NCBI GenBank assembly: GCA_021788015.1
Contig: JAJYLD010000006.1
Span: forward strand, 1,744 to 65,743
Source of the DNA: a bacterium
Lineage (GTDB): Bacteria > Patescibacteriota > Patescibacteriia > Patescibacteriales > JAKAJF01
Direction of reading: 5' to 3'
DNA length: 64,000 nt
Within the stretch, counting starts at the first letter, position 1; the number at the start of each line of letters is the position of its first letter. Below are positions 40,712 to 64,000 of this stretch, one piece after another. Under the pieces are notes generated by a model, which saw nothing but the letters and a program-made list of their open reading frames with translations, was not told the DNA's origin and ran no database searches. A program made the translations under genes and the position numbers.

Positions 40712-40853
40712 TTCAAAACACAAGGGGGTTCGGGGGCGGAATTGAGCGCCAAGGCGAGCACATTAAATTATAATCAATGTGATAGCGAATTGGAGTCCCC
40801 GAAACTTCTTTGGTTACTTTCTTGGTTACAAGAAAGTAACTCCTAGCGAAGCG
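40712..40853 (+). repeat. Family-1 repeat, copy D (near-consensus)
   Basis: TTCAAAACACAAGGGGGTTCGGGGGCGGAATTGAG, CGCC-AA-GGCG, ATCAATGTGATAGCGAATTGGAGTCCCCGAAACTT, GGTTACTTTCTTGG-TTA-CAAGAAAGTAAC, TCCTAGCGAAGCG. Confidence 0.8.
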
Positions 40854-55453: not shown

Positions 55454-56545
55454 TTAATCCTCAAATTTAGGTCTATCGATCGCAAGCGCTTCGATTTTCG
55501 ATTCCGTGCCGGCGATTTTTACGACATCTTTGTCGATCTTTTTAAATTCCTTGTAAGCGTTGTTGTAATGATTCACGGTCGTGCCGATGCTTGTTCCCAA
55601 TTTTTTTAAAAATTCATCGTATGAAAGCAAATGTTTTCCCAATTTTTCGACATTGGCTTTTATCTCTTTCGCGCTTTCTTCGATTTGCATGGCGCGAAGT
55701 CCTTGCAAAACCGTTTGCAGGTAAGCCAGAAACGAGGTCGGCGAAACGATGATGACATGCTTTTCGCGAAAAGCGTATTCGATCAAGTCGCGGGTGTTCA
55801 CTTGCACGGCTCCGACTTTATTGATCAAGAGGTCATAATAAATAGCTTCCGAAGGAATGAACATAAAAGCGAAATCCATCGTTTTTTCAGTCGGCTTAAC
55901 GTATTTCGAAGTTTCATCGATGCGATTTTTCAAATCCTGCTTGAATTGTTTTTCCAATTTTTCCCGCAAATCGGAATCGGAAGCGTTCAATATCTTTTCG
56001 TAGTTTTCCAAAGAGAATTTTGAATCGACCGGAATGATTTTATCTTTTACGAAAATGGCCGCGTCGACGATCGTGCCGTCTTTAAAGCCGTATTGCATTT
56101 GATAGGAATTGGGGGGCAAAACGTTCTTTAACGTCTCTTCCAAAAAATATTCGCCCAAAACGCCGCGCTGTTTCGGATTTTTTAAAATGTCCTGCAGATT
56201 TTGGAGTTGCGCCGAAAAATTAACCACCTGCTTGTTGGTTTCGTCAAGCTTAGTCAATTTTTCCGTAACTTCGGCGATGACTTTTTGCGCTTGTCCGGAA
56301 ATGCTTTGGGAAAGCTTGATGCTATGACCTAATTGTTCTTGCGTCGCTTTGTGGGTTTCGGCCAGCTTGTTGTCCAAAGCTTGGCGCAATTCCCGATTCT
56401 GTTCGGCCAATTGACTCATTCTTTCCATGAGCGCTCCCAATTTCTCGCCCGAATCCTCCGTTTTCCGCTTTAAAAGCAGAACAATTACGGCAATCACGCC
56501 CAAAAAAATGAAAAATAATAAGAATGTCATGAGTTGATTTTGCAT
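55454..56545 (-). CDS. rmuC: DNA recombination protein RmuC
   Basis: 363 aa. N-terminal TM helix, coiled coil, and a C-terminal nuclease-like block (FAFMFIPSEAIY..VIIVSPTSFLAYL). Confidence 0.85.
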   Translation of the reverse strand: MQNQLMTFLLFFIFLGVIAVIVLLLKRKTEDSGEKLGALMERMSQLAEQNRELRQALDNKLAETHKATQEQLGHSIKLSQSISGQAQKVIAEVTEKLTKLDETNKQVVNFSAQLQNLQDILKNPKQRGVLGEYFLEETLKNVLPPNSYQMQYGFKDGTIVDAAIFVKDKIIPVDSKFSLENYEKILNASDSDLREKLEKQFKQDLKNRIDETSKYVKPTEKTMDFAFMFIPSEAIYYDLLINKVGAVQVNTRDLIEYAFREKHVIIVSPTSFLAYLQTVLQGLRAMQIEESAKEIKANVEKLGKHLLSYDEFLKKLGTSIGTTVNHYNNAYKEFKKIDKDVVKIAGTESKIEALAIDRPKFED

Positions 56546-56787
56546 ACACTTATTTTAACACAGGAAGAAAAATTTAAAAACCCGGCGGTGCACCGGGTTT
56601 TAGGGAGCTATATGTAGATATCATAAAATCTCTTTTGCTTAACCTCTCTATAAATCTCAGAAATTTGCCCAATAAAATTGAGAATTTCTTTCTGAAATGT
56701 CATTCTTGAGGTGAGGAAATTAATTGGTATCGTTTTATATTAACTCCTAATACCAACATACTTCTAATTTTAAAATGTCAAGATAGT

Positions 56788-56983
56788 TTCAAGTACAATG
56801 GGTTTGGGGGGCGGAATTGAGCGTCGGGGCGAAAAAAATATAAAATAATCAACGCGATAGCGAATTGGAGCCCCGAAACTTACCCGCGCCCGCATAGCCA
56901 TCGAAGTATTGCGGACGGGTTTGGTTACTTTCTTGGTTATTTACCCGCCTTTGAAGGGCAAGAAAGTAACTCCCAGCGAAACG
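56788..56983 (+). repeat. Family-1 repeat, copy G (with an expanded terminal hairpin loop)
   Basis: TTTCAAGTACAATGGGTTTGGGGGGCGGAATTGAG, CGTC-GG-GGCG, ATCAACGCGATAGCGAATTGGAGCCCCGAAACTT, CCCGCGCCCGCA..TGCGGACGGG, GGTTACTTTCTTG[24-nt insert]CAAGAAAGTAAC. Confidence 0.75.
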
Positions 56984-56988
56984 TCAAG

Positions 56989-57200
56989 AAAAAAAGGAGC
57001 ATTAATGCTCCCGGCATGGCAAACCATGAGCGTGGCGACTCATTTCCCTGATCGGCGTCGGATAGGGTTTTCCCGACTAATGAGGTTTAACCACAGGGCC
57101 CGAATCCGCAGTAAGTTAGATCCGCTCGCGCCGGCGCGAAAGCCCTATATGATACTCAGAGGGTTGTTTTTTATTTGCGAATAGAGCGGCGCCATGCTTG
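56989..57200 (-). ncRNA. Candidate ~210-nt structured small RNA of unknown class
   Basis: Promoter TTGACA-16-TAAAAT upstream. Terminator GGAGCA-UUAA-UGCUCC plus U7 (56989-57011). G+C-rich body. The 5' GCAUGGC pairs with GCCAUGC just before the terminator. Confidence 0.45.
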
Positions 57201-57206
57201 TATCTT

Positions 57207-57234
57207 ATTTTAATAAATCCCGCATATTTGTCAA
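57207..57234 (-). promoter_or_regulatory. Sigma-70-type promoter for the candidate sRNA
   Basis: Minus strand: TTGACA (57234-57229), 16-nt spacer, TAAAAT (57212-57207). Confidence 0.45.
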
Positions 57235-57457
57235 TTATTAATTCGTATTCACGATGACATCTTACACGAACACGAGACGAGACGCGAAAAAATATTTAAT
57301 CTAATTTTAAATTGAAATCGGGAAATTTCTTGACTTATTTTTTGCGTGTGCTATTATTTTCGGCGTTTGGCTTCAAAAATAATTTTAAGCTGAACGTAAC
57401 TAATTAAAACAAATAGAGGGGGAGGTCTTAGGGAGGCCTCTATTTTTGTGCAAAAAA

Positions 57458-58852
57458 ATGAAATTATCAGATCAAGTGTTTAAAATAAAAACTGAAACTG
57501 ATAAATTTCAAAATAAAAAACGACTAAAAAAGAAAAAAAGATTAAACATATTGCTTCCGCCCTTGATTATTCTTTTGGCTTTGAGTTCTTACTTTTTCGG
57601 AAAAGGGCAAACGGTATTTTTCCCGTTCGACATAAACACGCTTAACGCAAATACAAAAATCGGCGCTCCAACAAACCGAACCGAAACGGTTCTAAACGTC
57701 GGCGACTTGAATCTTTCTTCTCTCGCCGATCTCGCGAGCTATTCCAGTTTGCCGGTGGGCAAGGTCGAAAATTTTCCCGTTCCCGATGCCAAAGGAACGG
57801 TAATTTTAATCCCCCAAATTCACCGCAATCCGGGAAGCGCGGTAAACGACCCGTCAAATGATAACGCGCAAGTCGCCCAAGAGCAAATCTATGATATTGA
57901 AAAATATCTTAATGAAAAATACGGCATAAATTTGATTTTGCTTGAAGGCGAAGTCGAAGGCAAAGTTCCGCAAAAAGAAATCGATACCATGAAAGAAAAA
58001 TTGCGGACCGGAGACAATTTGGCCGCGGGAATCAAAGATCTTCAGGCCTCAACGGATCCGAACGTTGATCCGAGCGCGAAAGCTAAAGTAATCCAAGAGC
58101 TTGAACAGGTCTTAAATAACCTTGACAGAGACATTGTTCTAAAAGGAGGCGCTTACAGGTTGGCGGCTCAAGGCAATAACGTCGATCTTTACGGGGCTGA
58201 AATTACTTCGACCCGCGAAAAAAGCACGGATATTGTAAGAAATTACGTTTATCTCAATGATCGCATCAACAGTCTTAATGCGCCGCAAACGGCGGAATTG
58301 AATTTAAATTCCGTTTTAGGGCTTAATTCTTCCGGTTCAAGCGCCGGCCTGCCCCAGTCGTTCAATTCGGCAACACTTCTTCAGTTGCTTCAAAATTTAG
58401 GGAATCAGCAAAACTCTCAGAGTGGCGTATTTCAAGACGTGACCAATCTTGAAAATACGGCTAACGCAAATAACGATTCGCGATTGGCGGGGGATTTGAA
58501 TTCAATCGACCAAAGTTTGAATACTTTGCGGACGATCGATCAGGCGGACGCGCAAGCCGCGGCGAGCGCTCCTTCCCGTTCCGACAACCCCTATAACAAT
58601 ATAAGCGATAAGGCGAAGCTGGAACAGATGTTGAAACAATCAGAGCAACAAATTCAAACGACCATTGTCGATCAGAGGAATCAAGACGCGGTTCGGGTTA
58701 CAAGCGATACCTTAAAAAACACAAACAACCGAGTCGCCGTTCTGCAGTTCGGCGCGGGGCATGAACAAGGCATGGTTAAAGATTTTAATGACAAAGGCTA
58801 CTCGGTAATCGTTGTTACTCCGAACGAAGTTTTGGCCGTTCCCCAAAATTAA
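57458..58852 (+). CDS. Membrane-anchored TraB/GumN/Tiki-superfamily-like protein with a long Q/N/S-rich insert
   Basis: VILIPQIH (GTxH-like), LLEGE, and a C-terminal VLQFGAGHEQGMVKDFNDKGYSV (GxGH..G....GY.V). The ORF-track TTG start is at 57446. Promoter TTGACT-N16-TATTAT at about 57329-57362. Confidence 0.5.
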   Translation: MKLSDQVFKIKTETDKFQNKKRLKKKKRLNILLPPLIILLALSSYFFGKGQTVFFPFDINTLNANTKIGAPTNRTETVLNVGDLNLSSLADLASYSSLPVGKVENFPVPDAKGTVILIPQIHRNPGSAVNDPSNDNAQVAQEQIYDIEKYLNEKYGINLILLEGEVEGKVPQKEIDTMKEKLRTGDNLAAGIKDLQASTDPNVDPSAKAKVIQELEQVLNNLDRDIVLKGGAYRLAAQGNNVDLYGAEITSTREKSTDIVRNYVYLNDRINSLNAPQTAELNLNSVLGLNSSGSSAGLPQSFNSATLLQLLQNLGNQQNSQSGVFQDVTNLENTANANNDSRLAGDLNSIDQSLNTLRTIDQADAQAAASAPSRSDNPYNNISDKAKLEQMLKQSEQQIQTTIVDQRNQDAVRVTSDTLKNTNNRVAVLQFGAGHEQGMVKDFNDKGYSVIVVTPNEVLAVPQN

Positions 58853-58898
58853 AAACACAAAATCCCTCCTCTTGTTTAGAAGAGGACAGGGTGAGGTA

Positions 58899-58935
58899 CA
58901 AAAAAAGAAATGGCCTTAAAGCCATTTCTTTTTTT
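58899..58935. terminator. Bidirectional intrinsic terminator between convergent genes
   Basis: A-run, GAAATGGC-CTTAAA-GCCATTTC, T-run. Confidence 0.8.
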
Positions 58936-58944
58936 GTGCTGCCG

Positions 58945-59490
58945 TTATTTGAATAAGCCCGATGAACCTCCGAACAGTTGATCTAAAACGAACAAACTGC
59001 CCAAATTATATTGAGGACCCAAGATTCCTCCGCCACCGAAGATTCCGTTATTATTATACAATCCGTTCAATAGCATGAGATTGCCCAGATTTGTATTGGT
59101 GAGACCGTTGCCGAAAACCGTTCCGCCGCCGAATAGCCCGTTCAATAGCATAAGATTGCCCAGATTTGTAGAGTTTCCGAAAACCGTTCCGCCTCCGTAC
59201 AAACTATTTAAGAGAATAAGATTGCCCAAGGAGCTTCTGCTTCCGAGCAATCCGTTCCCGCCATACAAACTGTTCAAAAGAAGTAAATTACCCAAGGTGG
59301 AGGTTGATGTCCCCGTTGTTCCGGTGGGACAAGGCATCTGGCTCTGCGATTCCGGAAGGCAATTGACATTGTCGTTTGGTGACGCGGAGCCGCTATTATC
59401 GCTTTGGGCGAATATCGCCGTTGGATAAATTATGAGAGAAAGCAACATGAGAAAAACAATCGAAGTGAAATATTTTCTCATTTTTATCAC
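58945..59490 (-). CDS. Secreted Leu/Gly-repeat protein, paralog 1 (5 repeats)
   Basis: Signal peptide (..AIFA/QS). Five units of ~22-28 aa of type (S/N)LGNL(L/I/M)LLN(S/G)L(Y/F)GG.., ending LGSLFVLDQLFGGSSGLFK. Confidence 0.6.
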   Translation of the reverse strand: MIKMRKYFTSIVFLMLLSLIIYPTAIFAQSDNSGSASPNDNVNCLPESQSQMPCPTGTTGTSTSTLGNLLLLNSLYGGNGLLGSRSSLGNLILLNSLYGGGTVFGNSTNLGNLMLLNGLFGGGTVFGNGLTNTNLGNLMLLNGLYNNNGIFGGGGILGPQYNLGSLFVLDQLFGGSSGLFK

Positions 59491-59551
59491 CTCCTTTCTT
59501 CATTTTTAAGAAAAACGCGATAAAGGAAAAATCCCTTCATGTAAATTATAG

Positions 59552-59578
59552 TACGTAGCAATGAACCGGGATGTTACA
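59552..59578 (-). promoter_or_regulatory. ECF-type promoter TGTAAC-N17-CGTA upstream of 58945..59490
   Basis: Minus strand: TGTAAC (59578-59573), 17-nt spacer, CGTA (59555-59552), then CTATAAT. Confidence 0.5.
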
Positions 59579-59796
59579 CGCTATTTTCCTTCTGTTCCAA
59601 TTTTAGGCATAAATTCATTCTTCTCCGCAAACATCTTTTTATCCGATTTTAAGAAAATAATTTTGAGAAATATCCGAAAAGTTTTTAATTTTGATAATTT
59701 TTTCTTGACCATTTTTATTTTAATCCGCAGGGGGCAGGACCATGTCCCGCCCCCCTTGCTTTCACTTATTTTTTCGAGAAAAAGAAAATTCACCGT

Positions 59797-60339
59797 TTAC
59801 TTGAAAAGGCCTCCGCTTGTTCCGAAAAGCTGATCTAAAACGAACAAACCGCCCAAATTGTTTGTGCCCGACCCTAAAATTCCTCCATTATTCAAGATTC
59901 CGTTGCCGCTGAACAATCTGTCCAAAACGAACAGATTTCCCAAATTGGTGCTGCCCGCGCCCGTTTGACTGTTAAAAAGAGTTCCTCCTCCTCCGAATAA
60001 TTGATTTAGCATAAACAAATCGCCCAAATTGGAAGATGACGTATTTCCGACGCCCAATGCATTATTCCCGTTAAAAAGCTGATCCAAAATGACCAAGTCT
60101 CCCAAGCTCGTTTTAGTGGCGGTGGGAGTGGTCGTTACCGGCACTTGAACCGTCTGAGTATAAAGCAAAGTGAAACCGGGAGGAATGGACTGGCCGATAT
60201 TGATCACCCTCTTTTCGCCGGTGGTGGGATTGATAATTGTCGCTTTGCCGGTAGAGGCGAAAACAAAAGCCGGCGCGGCCATCAAAACCGTAAGCGCGAG
60301 AGCGATAATGTATTTTATCTGTGTTTTCATATTTTTCAC
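59797..60339 (-). CDS. Secreted Leu/Gly-repeat protein, paralog 2 (4 repeats)
   Basis: Signal peptide (..FVFA/ST). Four units of type NLG(D/N/G)LF(V/M)L(D/N)(Q/R)LF(G/S)G.., ending LGGLFVLDQLFGTSGGLFK. Confidence 0.6.
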   Translation of the reverse strand: MKNMKTQIKYIIALALTVLMAAPAFVFASTGKATIINPTTGEKRVINIGQSIPPGFTLLYTQTVQVPVTTTPTATKTSLGDLVILDQLFNGNNALGVGNTSSSNLGDLFMLNQLFGGGGTLFNSQTGAGSTNLGNLFVLDRLFSGNGILNNGGILGSGTNNLGGLFVLDQLFGTSGGLFK

Positions 60340-60391
60340 CCCCTGTCTAGATAGGAATCCATGAAAGGTTTTCCTCTATCGTGCTATATAA

Positions 60392-60418
60392 TACGTGAAA
60401 AAGTTTTAAAACGTTACA
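60392..60418 (-). promoter_or_regulatory. ECF-type promoter TGTAAC-N17-CGTA upstream of 59797..60339
   Basis: Minus strand: TGTAAC (60418-60413), 17-nt spacer, CGTA (60395-60392), then TTATATAG. Same architecture as 59552-59578. Confidence 0.5.
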
Positions 60419-60470
60419 AAAAAATAAAACCGCGACATCGGGTTTTTTAAAGCGCAAACCGTCCCTAAAA

Positions 60471-60590
60471 TCAATCAGGGATCTTCTGATCTTTGACAAC
60501 AAAAATTTTATTGTTCTGTTTTAATCTTACTTTTAAAATTCTCTTCAAGATGACAAGCGATTTTATCAAACTTAACTTTTTGTTTTTCAT
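60471..60590 (-). CDS. Possible 39-aa ORF immediately downstream of the ECF sigma gene
   Basis: Hand translation MKNKKLSLIKSLVILKRILKVRLKQNNKIFVVKDQKIPD*. The ATG is 5 nt after the sigma stop. Followed by a hairpin (AAAACC..GGTTTT). Confidence 0.25.
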   Translation of the reverse strand: MKNKKLSLIKSLVILKRILKVRLKQNNKIFVVKDQKIPD

Positions 60591-60594
60591 TTTC

Positions 60595-61062
60595 TTATTT
60601 AAATTTTAATTTTTTTATTTTTTTTAAAGCCCTATGCGCCATGACTCTCGCCGCTCCTTCGGACTGGGCCGTTAATTTTCCTATTTCTTTATATTCAAAT
60701 CCATGAATATATTTTAAAACCAAAACTTTTTTTTCTTTTTCCGGCAGTTTGTCCAAAATAATCTCGAGCTCCGGAGAAGGGGTTTCTTTTCCGGAGAACG
60801 AAAGCAAACGATCGAGATCTATTTCAATTTTGTAAGCGCGATAATAATCGACCAATTTGTTATGAGCTATTTTAAAAATCCATGACTGGAAAGGTCTGCT
60901 TTCGGAAAACTTGTCAAATTCCTTCCATGCCCTCAAGAAAACGTCTTGGGTCAAATCTTCCGCTATTTCCCTGTTTTTTCCCGTTCGATACCAAAAATAA
61001 GAATAGATCTTGTCTTTGTATTGAAAATAATATCCTATATATCGTAATTTTTCTTTGAACAT
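60595..61062 (-). CDS. ECF (group 4) sigma-70 family sigma factor
   Basis: 155 aa. Region 2 (AEDLTQDVFLRAWK..WIFKIAHNKLVDYYR) and region 4 (LPEKEKKVLVLKYIHGFEYKEIGKLTAQSEGAARVMAHRALKKIK). Confidence 0.85.
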   Translation of the reverse strand: MFKEKLRYIGYYFQYKDKIYSYFWYRTGKNREIAEDLTQDVFLRAWKEFDKFSESRPFQSWIFKIAHNKLVDYYRAYKIEIDLDRLLSFSGKETPSPELEIILDKLPEKEKKVLVLKYIHGFEYKEIGKLTAQSEGAARVMAHRALKKIKKLKFK

Positions 61063-61101
61063 AAATTTTACGATATTTGTTTGGGGATTATTTTCAAATT
61101 T

Positions 61102-61737
61102 TTATTTTTTTCTTCCGTAAATGATATAAATCAAACCTTTAAAGTAAAAAAGAACGGTTATAAAATACCAAATCAAGGTGAAAACGGCCGCGATTAAAAA
61201 CATTTGGGCGTAATAAGTGCCGTTGATTGTGTAAACAACTATATCTCTCGACGAATCGCAATTTATATTTTTCGGAAGCAGGCAATATTTTTTTGTTTTT
61301 TCTTGATTTAAACTCGCAAGCAGGGCGGATTTTAAAACATTTTTCGAAAGATTTTTTTGCCCCTGGTTTTCGGCAACGATCAAATTCACGACAACGTCCG
61401 CGTTTCTTTCAAAATCGGGATTACAAATTCCGTTTTGCAAATCAGCGGAAGAAATCCTGTCAATAATTTTGGTATCCGGGTTATAACATCCCAGGATTCC
61501 TCTTTGTCGAAGAAAGCTCGGAATCGTATTGTCGATGTTAAGATCGCTCGAAGCCGTAAAATCTCCCAGATCGCCGATAACGGTTGTATTGGCGCTCGTC
61601 TCCATAATTCTTCCCGGGAAATAACGCAACCAGAAAAAGAAAATTAAAATCGTAGAAATGGCGAACGCCACTTTAAACAATCGATGCCACCATTTTTCTT
61701 CAAGCTCCGGTCTCTGAAAATCTTTAAAAAAATTCAT
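61102..61737 (-). CDS. Two-TM membrane protein with a Cys-containing extracytoplasmic domain, first gene of the ECF sigma operon
   Basis: 211 aa with TM helices near both termini. 39 nt upstream of the sigma gene. No anti-sigma motif recognised. Confidence 0.5.
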   Translation of the reverse strand: MNFFKDFQRPELEEKWWHRLFKVAFAISTILIFFFWLRYFPGRIMETSANTTVIGDLGDFTASSDLNIDNTIPSFLRQRGILGCYNPDTKIIDRISSADLQNGICNPDFERNADVVVNLIVAENQGQKNLSKNVLKSALLASLNQEKTKKYCLLPKNINCDSSRDIVVYTINGTYYAQMFLIAAVFTLIWYFITVLFYFKGLIYIIYGRKK

Positions 61738-61836
61738 ATTTATTTTTATTTTTTCCGCGAATTGCGAAATATAATTATAACCTCGCCTTCATAACGGAAA
61801 TATTTGTAAATTTGTATTTGATTTATAAATGGCAAA

Positions 61837-61964
61837 ATTAAAAAAACCGACTCATAATTAATAAAAACAATTATTAATCAATAGTCGGTTTCGCCATTGG
61901 CTCCTCGCGAACTCGGGCGACCATTCGATATTTGCTTACGCGAGTTCAGCCCCTATTAATTTGT
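61837..61964 (-). ncRNA. Candidate ~130-nt leader or sRNA (structured G+C-rich segment plus long terminator hairpin)
   Basis: Starts about 7 nt after TAGAAT. GAACUCG/CGAGUUC stem. Hairpin AAACCGACU..AGUCGGUUU (61844-61891) plus U-run. 100 nt upstream of the 61737 start. Confidence 0.4.
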
Positions 61965-61970
61965 TACGGT

Positions 61971-61999
61971 ATTCTAGCACGGAGAAGTTAAAAAGTCAA
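61971..61999 (-). promoter_or_regulatory. Sigma-70-type promoter TTGACT-17-TAGAAT
   Basis: Minus strand: TTGACT (61999-61994), 17-nt spacer, TAGAAT (61976-61971). Confidence 0.5.
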
Positions 62000-62049
62000 T
62001 ATTCAAAAAATCAAATTTCCGCCTAAAATGTCTCGGTGTCGCGCTCCTC

Positions 62050-62078
62050 TTGCCCATGTCGGAAATATCCTGTATAAT
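62050..62078 (+). promoter_or_regulatory. Putative uvrA promoter TTGCCC-17-TATAAT with a GGAAATATCC palindrome in the spacer
   Basis: -35 at 62050-62055, -10 at 62073-62078, GGAAATATCC at 62061-62070. Confidence 0.4.
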
Positions 62079-62106
62079 AAATTCGTTTAATCGTCAAGAC
62101 TAATTT

Positions 62107-64000
62107 ATGCCTAATGTTATAAAAATCAAAGGGGCTCGCGTCCATAATCTTAAAAATATCGATGTTGAAATACCGAGGGACAAGCTCGTGGTCATAACGG
62201 GACTGTCGGGATCGGGCAAGTCGAGTTTGGCCTTCGATACAATCTACGCCGAAGGACAAAGAAGGTATGTCGAATCTCTCTCCGCCTACGCCCGCCAATT
62301 TATCGGAATGATGGAAAAGGCGGACGTGGATTTAATCGAAGGATTGTCCCCCGCGATTTCCATCGATCAAAAATCGGCTTCGCACAATCCGCGCTCAACG
62401 GTGGGAACGGTAACGGAAATTTACGATTACCTCCGACTTTTGTTTTCCCGGATCGGCGTGCCTCATTGTCCTCAATGCGGCCAGAAAATAAAACAATATT
62501 CGATTGACGAAATAGTGGATCAAGTTTATAAAAATTTTTCTCACGATGATGTTATGATTCTCTCTCCTTTGATTAAAGACAAAAAGGGAGAACATAAAAA
62601 TATTCTGGAAAGAATCGCCAAAGTCGGTTATTCGAGAGTGAGGTTCGATGGGAAAATTTACAGCCTGGAAGAAGCGGAAGACATGAAAGTCGACAAACAG
62701 AGAAAACATAATCTCGATATTTTGATCGATCGCGTCAAAATAGAAAACAACAAAGACGATTTGGCGAGATTGACCGAAGGCATTGAAAAAGCCTTGGAGC
62801 TGGCGAACGGTTTGGTCACCATTTTAAACATGCCCAAAGAAAAAGAAAAGGGGAAGGAATCGACTTTTTCTCAGCTTTTCGCCTGCCCGGACTGCGGAAT
62901 CAGTTTGCCCGAAATCGAACCGAGAAACTTCTCTTTCAATTCCCCGCACGGAGCATGCCCCGATTGTTCCGGTTTGGGCACGAAATTGGAAATAGATCCG
63001 AAATTGATTTTGAACCCCAATTTAACAATCGCGCAAGGCGGGATAAAACCATGGTCCCATAGCACGACGGGCGGCCAGACTTGGCTTATGCGCATCTTGG
63101 GCACGGTAGCCCAAGCGAATGGCTTCGATTTGAATACGCCGCTAAAAGATTTGACAAAAAAACAAATGGACATAGTTTTATACGGCACCGGCGGAAAAAG
63201 TTATAATGTCGATTATGAAAATGAAAGATTCTCGGGAGAACTCTCCACTGAATTCGAAGGCGTGATTCCCAATCTCGAAAGAAGATACGAACAAACCGAA
63301 TCGGATTATGTTCGCAAGGAAATCGAAGGTTATATGCGAGTTTTAATCTGCCCGACTTGCGAAGGCAAAAGATTGAAGCCGGAAATGCTTGCCGTGAAAG
63401 TCGCGGATCGTTCGATTTACGACGTGACGAGCAAGACGATCTCCGAAGCGAAAAAATTCTTCTCCGGTCTCGAAACCGGCAACGAATTGTCGGCGCGCGA
63501 TAAAAAAATCGCTTCTCAGATTTTAAAAGAAATCCGCACCCGCCTTTCGTTTTTATCCAATGTCGGTCTCGATTATCTTACGCTAAGCCGAACGGCCAAC
63601 ACTTTATCCGGCGGCGAAGCGCAACGCATCAGGCTCGCCACTCAAATCGGTTCGGCTTTAACCGGAGTTTTATACGTCCTGGACGAACCGTCGATCGGAT
63701 TGCACCAGAAAGACAATGACAAATTGATTGAGACTTTAAAAACTCTGCGCGATCTGGGCAATACGGTTATCGTCGTCGAACACGACGAAGCGACCATGGA
63801 AGCGGCGGACTGGATTTTGGATATCGGTCCCGGAGCCGGCGAACACGGCGGCGAAGTTATCGCTGACGGAACGCCGACGCAAGTTAAAAAATCGGCGAAA
63901 TCTTTAACCGGTCAATACTTGTCCGGAAAGAAAACGATTCCCGCTCCGGCCAAATACCGCGCGGGTGGCGGCAAATCAATTAAAATCATCGGCGCTAGCG
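62107..64000 (+). CDS. uvrA: Excinuclease ABC subunit A (5' ~630 codons; runs off the window end)
   Basis: Hand translation from the ATG at 62107: [65 protein letters not shown].. Absent from the ORF track because there is no stop in the window. Confidence 0.95.

Follow-up and report, generated by a model that had tools for sequence, protein, structure and literature searches.

The stretch of DNA analysed here (64 kb, referred to below as the window) belongs to a genome of 1.13 Mb, which is assembled into 13 contigs and rated 100% complete. The locus under study lies between rmuC and uvrA. rmuC is transcribed from the minus strand and its own downstream neighbours are syntenic in 11 relatives; uvrA starts at 62107. 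In two of the related genomes (G004 and G017) rmuC and uvrA are adjacent divergent neighbours, and in two others (G002 and G005) they are one ORF apart, but in this genome (G000) they are separated by 5.5 kb (56546-62106). This interval includes the candidate RNA gene located upstream of rmuC, a copy of a dispersed repeat, a TraB/PrgY-like gene, genes for two Leu/Gly-repeat proteins, an ECF-type sigma factor gene and a riboswitch. Since rmuC and uvrA are neighbours in some relatives, the block of TraB-like, Leu/Gly-repeat and ECF-sigma genes looks inserted or translocated at a variable spot. The TraB-like gene together with its repeat-protein neighbour recurs in 8 out of 200 other genomes of the order. 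The candidate is located at the edge of the 5.5-kb block, back to back with the promoter of the TraB-like gene.

Several other regulatory elements were noticed in this interval. A c-di-GMP-II-GAG riboswitch (61874-61963, minus strand; 44.8 bits with a cut-off of 40) is located upstream of the genes coding for a 211-aa protein and the ECF-type sigma factor (61737-60595), and the surface-protein block may therefore be responsive to c-di-GMP. A TG-extended promoter, TTGACT-16-TATTAT (57330-57357, plus strand), precedes the TraB-like gene. Within the leader of about 90 nt, a G+C-rich hairpin and an ensuing T-run (57421-57441) are located immediately in front of the start codon and might act as an attenuator or mask the ribosome site. 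On the other side of the candidate, rmuC is preceded by an extended -10-like element TGTTAAAAT about 10 nt before its ATG (56545-56565, minus strand), with no Shine-Dalgarno sequence between the two. If this element is used, the rmuC mRNA would be leaderless or nearly so.

The earlier note had described a G+C-rich stretch of about 200 nt within a 900-bp AT-rich, gene-free region. The G+C-rich island is real: the G+C content of the candidate is 0.52-0.57, compared to 0.27-0.36 in the flanking spacer and 41.5% in the whole genome, and by its peak G+C content the spacer ranks 18th among 360 ORF-free stretches, alongside rRNA, tRNA, RNase P and repeat loci. However, the island extends for about 180 nt beyond the terminator (56985-56807), and the supposedly gene-free remainder contains another promoter-like site, an ORF of 31 codons and a further terminator (56790-56577). 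The latter stretch may constitute a second small unit on the minus strand. It starts with a TTGACA accompanied by a weak -10 element near 56790; the ORF (56703-56608, MTFQKEILNF...) has no nearby Shine-Dalgarno sequence, and a symmetric A-run/T-run hairpin (56601-56577) could terminate transcription on both strands. Searches of the sequence in front of rmuC in 11 genomes, and of the rest of this genome, found no relative of the ORF.

Candidate transcription unit and its predicted fold

A promoter scan of the minus strand has found TTGACA-16-TAAAAT, which matches the consensus in 11 out of 12 positions, and a terminator GGAGCA-UUAA-UGCUCC (stem 57012-56995) is located downstream, its U7 run ending at 56989. 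The positions agree with those given in the earlier note (57234-57207 for the promoter and 57011-56989 for the terminator). The RNA between them has no ORF, the longest frame starting with ATG being 16 codons long. A 13-codon frame which ends in the terminator loop was rejected, as its Shine-Dalgarno spacing is only 2 nt. At the sequence level, the candidate can thus be described as the self-contained minus-strand transcription unit that had been proposed, with its own promoter, no ORF and a strong intrinsic terminator, the attributes of a generic stand-alone small RNA gene. A look-up of sequencing runs by sampled words listed one DNA run containing the stretch, which may be the source of this DNA, and no RNA run; two metatranscriptome runs of the same study contained almost none of these words.

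The only long open frame in this region (91 codons) is located on the opposite strand; it has no Pfam match and no relative among 5.8 billion protein clusters. A decayed gene was sought by tblastx: comparison with the ORFs occupying the same position in 11 relatives, with the flanks of the 8 TraB-like loci and with the rest of the genome revealed no protein-like similarity. No protein remnant was thus detected by Pfam, tblastx or the protein-cluster search.

The secondary structure was predicted by a partition-function fold of the 213-nt transcript, while further energy tests were done on a 216-nt stretch and a 189-nt core. The closing pairing described in the earlier note, between GCAUGGC at the 5' end (57197-57191) and GCCAUGC in front of the terminator (57020-57014), is present in the fold with a pair probability of 0.97-0.98, and the end-to-end helix extends over a UU bulge to 10 bp (0.70-0.98). 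The internal stems expected from the same reading were found as well. The hairpin UCGCG-CCGG-CGCGA is part of a Y-shaped three-way element, which also contains the hairpin CGGAUCU/GGAUUCG; GUCGG/CCGAC forms a separate hairpin, and AUGAG/CUCAU, as part of the AUGAGU/GCUCAU hairpin, competes with CUCAUU/AAUGAG. The predicted elements are listed in the table together with the flanking signals.

Elements of the candidate transcription unit and the adjoining repeat copy, in the order of minus-strand transcription (window coordinates; RNA nt counts from the predicted start)
Feature	Coordinates	Strand	Remarks
sigma-70-type promoter TTGACA-16-TAAAAT	57207..57234	(-)	11/12 match; start inferred near 57201
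closing helix, 5' strand (RNA nt 5-14)	57188..57197	(-)	pairs with 57014-57025; probability 0.70-0.98
A-rich stretch, predicted to be mostly single-stranded (RNA nt 15-52, 38 nt)	57150..57187	(-)	low-probability pairs only, 0.41-0.52
Y-shaped three-way element (RNA nt 53-110)	57092..57149	(-)	predicted; pair probabilities 0.55-0.97
hairpin GUCGG(G)/(U)CCGAC (RNA nt 125-145)	57057..57077	(-)	pair probability 0.86-0.93
hairpin AUGAGU/GCUCAU (RNA nt 159-176)	57026..57043	(-)	probability 0.61-0.92; stacks on closing helix
closing helix, 3' strand with UU bulge (RNA nt 177-188)	57014..57025	(-)	predicted fold
intrinsic terminator, 7-bp stem, UUAA loop and U7	56989..57012	(-)	pair probability ~1.0 with or without closing helix
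copy of the dispersed hairpin-repeat family	56807..56985	(-)	27 BLAST rows, 26 besides the self-match

The CCCU loop of the GUCGG/CCGAC hairpin could pair with an AGGG located at about RNA nt 153-156, forming a putative pseudoknot that was noticed by eye. GGA motifs of the CsrA type are not enriched (five were counted by eye while about 3.5 are expected). The terminator retains a pair probability of 0.99-1.0 if the closing helix is disrupted by barring its 5' strand from pairing, suggesting a constitutive end rather than a switch.

Chance expectation and conservation

We estimated how often the individual signals would arise by chance. Promoter matches of at least 11/12 were found in about 2% of 3000 simulated sequences of 900 bp with the same composition, and a perfect 7-bp helix between the first and the last 20 nt appeared in about 1% of 20000 simulations, both figures (~0.02 and ~0.01) being post hoc. 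As 10 out of the 95 promoter sites of this quality sit at most 450 nt upstream of tRNA, tmRNA or 23S genes, this consensus is clearly in use for stable RNAs in the genome. Genome-wide, there are 11 cases in which a terminator-like site follows a strong promoter at a distance of 60-400 nt, and about 11 would be expected at random given 95 promoters and 761 terminator-like sites. The candidate is the only one of the 11 units which is about 200 nt long and both G+C-rich (0.53) and ORF-free. The others that were inspected include a tRNA-Glu unit and a small membrane-protein gene.

The latter unit (contig C11, 177394-177742, locus L044) was considered as a paralogue of the candidate and rejected, as it codes for a protein. 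No other ORF-free island of the genome reaches its G+C content (0.64). It is furnished with an 11/12 promoter and a terminator; the encoded small hydrophobic protein (MKKISLIPGVISILLG...) is preceded by a strong Shine-Dalgarno sequence. Its frame reaches a stop after 43 codons and is followed by more hydrophobic-looking sequence. The locus may comprise two tiny genes or a frameshift.

The earlier note had called the RNA structured, which the folding energy does not bear out. The 216-nt stretch including the terminator has z = -1.37, with 18 out of 200 shuffled sequences folding as well, and the 189-nt core without the terminator has z = -0.82 (44 out of 200). The opposite strand folds slightly more stably than the candidate (-60.4 vs -57.9 kcal/mol), with z = -0.37.

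BLAST has found the candidate in none of 40 related genomes, while in an equivalent search the tmRNA of this genome, used as a positive control, was detected in 36 of the 40 with 68-78% identity over longer matches (71-77% in three genomes of the same family). The species representatives include no member of the same genus. A covariance model, R1, was constructed from the 189-nt core, using the single sequence entered twice and a centroid-like structure. Scanning of 150 genomes of the order with R1 gave nothing convincing: the best foreign match (E 0.007) is an alignment of 100 nt in which the greater part of the model is deleted, and about one such match is expected by chance over 150 genomes. 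With laxer filters, no match at E <= 1 was obtained in the five closest genomes, three of them from the same family; the best one (E 1.08, in an order-level genome) is again a short partial alignment lacking most of the model.

Targeted searches were equally negative. Nothing like the candidate was found in the flanks of rmuC orthologues in 11 genomes by nhmmer and sensitive blastn, nor at the 8 TraB-like loci, either by a filter-off covariance-model scan or within 1.2-1.5 kb. Scanning metagenome, genome and viral collections for exact 21-mers and 20-mers from the candidate returned nothing, and neither did its opposite-strand open frame used as a pseudo-protein probe against metagenome, genome and viral contigs; these contig collections may omit records very near the source genome. 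blastn against phages and plasmids was negative too. The comparison with related genomes suggested in the earlier note has therefore yielded no homologue, and the candidate has neither conservation nor covariation in its favour.

The sequence feature is real and well delimited, and it makes a reasonable candidate for a small RNA gene. Since it has no relative in the searched genomes and its fold energy is at chance level, it should be regarded as unclassified and lineage-private. Judging from the arrangement of its signals, we consider the chances to be about even that it is a small non-coding RNA unit transcribed on its own, about 190-205 nt long and private to this lineage.

It is also possible, although we think it rather unlikely, that the locus is inert, consisting of decayed or foreign DNA at a rearrangement hot spot, such as what is left of a lost gene, or of a mobile element or repeat that can no longer be recognised, with signals that are left over or coincidental. 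The orphan status of the sequence in every search would fit this, as would a fold that does not exceed chance on either strand and a co-occurrence of promoter and terminator at the random rate. The variability of the rmuC-uvrA interval, which is absent in G004 and G017, occupied by other ORFs in G002 and G005 and expanded to 5.5 kb here, points in the same direction, and so does the repeat copy abutting the candidate. Moreover, G+C-rich hairpin repeats abound in the genome, and a patch of high G+C content is therefore not necessarily an RNA gene. On the other hand, tblastx revealed no trace of a protein among the 11 relatives, the 8 TraB-like loci and the genome itself, and the candidate bears no similarity to a repeat family. 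An 11/12 promoter, an end helix (each at the 1-2% chance level) and a strong terminator also follow one another in the order and with the spacing of a small RNA gene, which argues for a transcribed unit.

Leader, repeat module or known RNA class

The closing helix and the terminator could in principle belong to a cis-acting leader, in which a ligand-stabilised closing helix would decide between a stop at 56989 and read-through to the small ORF and rmuC. The 3' strand of the helix ends 1 nt before the terminator, a layout found in many riboswitches, and riboswitches are used in this genome, as the c-di-GMP-II-GAG element demonstrates. However, we consider such a leader very unlikely. No known aptamer class matches the candidate even at E <= 10. 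The terminator forms with a probability of about 1.0 whether or not the closing helix is blocked and no anti-terminator is predicted, which argues against a riboswitch. No regulated ORF is located directly downstream: the repeat copy, the promoter-like site and the second terminator intervene before rmuC, which has its own extended -10-like element just upstream, and nothing similar to the candidate precedes rmuC in the 11 relatives.

The repeat copy begins 4 nt after the U-run of the candidate and has the same orientation. Similar sequences (76-92% identity) occur at 26 further places in the genome, some of them inside 40712-40853 of the window, and the copy explains the rest of the G+C-rich island while lying outside the candidate RNA. 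Several of the others follow immediately on the stop codon of a protein gene and are oriented like that gene, suggesting that the family either targets the 3' ends of genes or constitutes them. The copy next to the candidate is thus placed as it would be behind a gene end, and we count this position in favour of a putative RNA gene.

According to the earlier note, the region could turn out to be just additional degenerate repeat modules. This does not apply to the candidate: a BLAST search of the genome with 56989-57240 has found only the self-match, no sequence similarity to the dispersed hairpin-repeat family was detected, and identity to the repeat is confined to 56985-56807. A related explanation, which we hold to be just as improbable as the leader, is that the candidate represents a unique or variable module of a dispersed mosaic repeat, the two together forming a composite mobile element of about 400 nt (57201-56807). 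The family is modular and the copy is contiguous with the candidate in the same orientation; nevertheless, none of the 26 other BLAST rows of the family is preceded by anything similar, their left flanks being gene ends, and 56989-57240 has no second copy in the genome.

The search for known RNA families has confirmed that no class can be assigned. At the gathering score, Rfam reports only two tRNAs and the c-di-GMP-II-GAG riboswitch in the 64-kb window and nothing on the candidate. With permissive filters and E <= 10, there was no match on the candidate in the region 56400-57600 either; the 11 weak matches found there (E 0.67-9.3) are all located outside 56989-57230, and none of them is a riboswitch aptamer. 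Both RNase P RNA and tmRNA are located by Rfam at other sites of the genome, while the 6S model RF00013 gives nothing in the whole genome at E <= 10. We also scanned 20 other G+C-rich ORF-free islands of the genome (E <= 0.1) for 6S or SRP RNA and found neither, the matches being to the start of a 23S RNA, weakly to a T-box-like element and, in one case, due to chance. The literature, supplementary files aside, yielded no report on 6S RNA in candidate-phyla bacteria.

Since neither 6S nor SRP RNA was found elsewhere in the genome, it was at first tempting to see the candidate as a divergent form of either. The housekeeping or 6S-like role mentioned in the earlier note, taken here as that of a divergent RNA missed by the Rfam models in this phylum, would fit the size, the closed ends and the possession of a promoter and a terminator in a genome without a detected 6S RNA, but it is extremely improbable given the lack of any Rfam match and, above all, of conservation (0 of 40 relatives, compared to 36 of 40 for tmRNA), the failure of the covariance model both in 150 genomes of the order and, at E <= 1, in the five closest ones, and a predicted shape (in both the MFE and the centroid structure, a closing helix of 10 bp encloses the three-way element and two hairpins) that is not a rod with a central bubble. 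An SRP RNA variant was likewise rejected, as the SRP RNA models RF00169 and RF01854 do not match and the genome has no detectable Ffh M domain or SRP54-type GTPase.

The apparent absence of the signal recognition particle is a more surprising observation than the candidate RNA itself. Neither of the two RNA models gives any match in this genome, and RF00169 finds none in 31 genomes of the order, this one included (0/31). On the protein side, the Ffh M domain (PF02978), the SRP54 GTPase domain common to Ffh and FtsY (PF00448) and TIGR00959 have no true match in this genome. A full PF00448 match is missing from 25 genomes of the order and from 80 genomes of the phylum, several of which are single-contig. 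Only short P-loop matches (E ~1e-4 to 1e-6) are seen there, mostly covering the first 30-90 of 196 model positions, while all 14 control genomes match (14/14). The DTAGR motif was not found in the six-frame translation of the genome either. If this is not a tool artefact, a near-universal SRP pathway has been lost across a phylum; in those parts of the literature that were accessible, no paper was found stating such a loss.

Interpretation and comparison with known systems

Assuming that the candidate is an independently transcribed small RNA, its near-consensus sigma-70-type promoter would start transcription near 57201, and the transcript, carrying no credible ORF, would end at the constitutive intrinsic terminator at 56989. 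The first bases of the RNA would pair with those just before the terminator, so that both ends would be held in helices. Such an arrangement is the usual protection of small RNAs from exonucleases, and here the paired ends and the terminator hairpin would presumably serve the same purpose. The unpaired A-rich stretch of 38 nt and the loops of the hairpins might be free to contact a target, perhaps, as we speculate, in the divergently transcribed block next door. An RNAduplex scan of 1656 start regions was discarded as uninformative on targets, since it returned unrealistic long-loop duplexes; the neighbouring genes ranked 240th or worse.

If made, the RNA is most likely a young, fast-evolving or recently acquired one, with a local regulatory role or none, rather than a conserved cellular RNA. 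A more ambitious version, in which a new lineage-restricted stable RNA of an ultra-small, Patescibacteria-type bacterium has arrived or evolved together with the ECF-sigma/TraB-like block and acts on this block or on RNA polymerase, appears improbable. Were it true, it would represent a class of RNA regulators without relatives in current databases. A transcript from this locus would extend by one the private small RNAs of a bacterial group in which RNA regulation is essentially uncharted. The candidate also delimits a surface-protein block that looks mobile. On present evidence it gives no clue to a function and does not generalise beyond one genome, and since it has neither structural nor comparative support, its general interest is low until a transcript is shown; it is chiefly of value as a cautionary, well-bounded case for those who have transcriptome data from this habitat.

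Among known systems, 6S RNA (RF00013) resembles the candidate in size and in its paired 5' and 3' ends, and no other 6S RNA was found in the genome. However, the candidate is predicted to be branched, its closing helix is only 10 bp long, the model does not match it and it is not conserved. Mosaic hairpin repeats of the BOX/BIME type are likewise G+C-rich, hairpin-forming and intergenic, and the candidate adjoins a true repeat copy, but it is itself single-copy and lacks similarity to the family.

Klein, Misulovin and Eddy in 2002, and the GC-IGR screens of the Breaker laboratory, reportedly obtained candidate RNAs from G+C-rich intergenic regions of AT-rich genomes. Our candidate resembles those in being an ORF-free G+C-rich island within an AT-rich spacer that belongs to no family. 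Candidates from such screens are normally accepted only with covariation across homologues, whereas our candidate lacks any homologue and does not fold more stably than expected by chance. Stand-alone genes of trans-acting small RNAs provide the other comparison. Although the candidate has no conserved seed or predicted target, it shares with them a promoter, the lack of an ORF, a terminator with a U-run, a length of about 200 nt and a location in a spacer divergent from the neighbouring gene.
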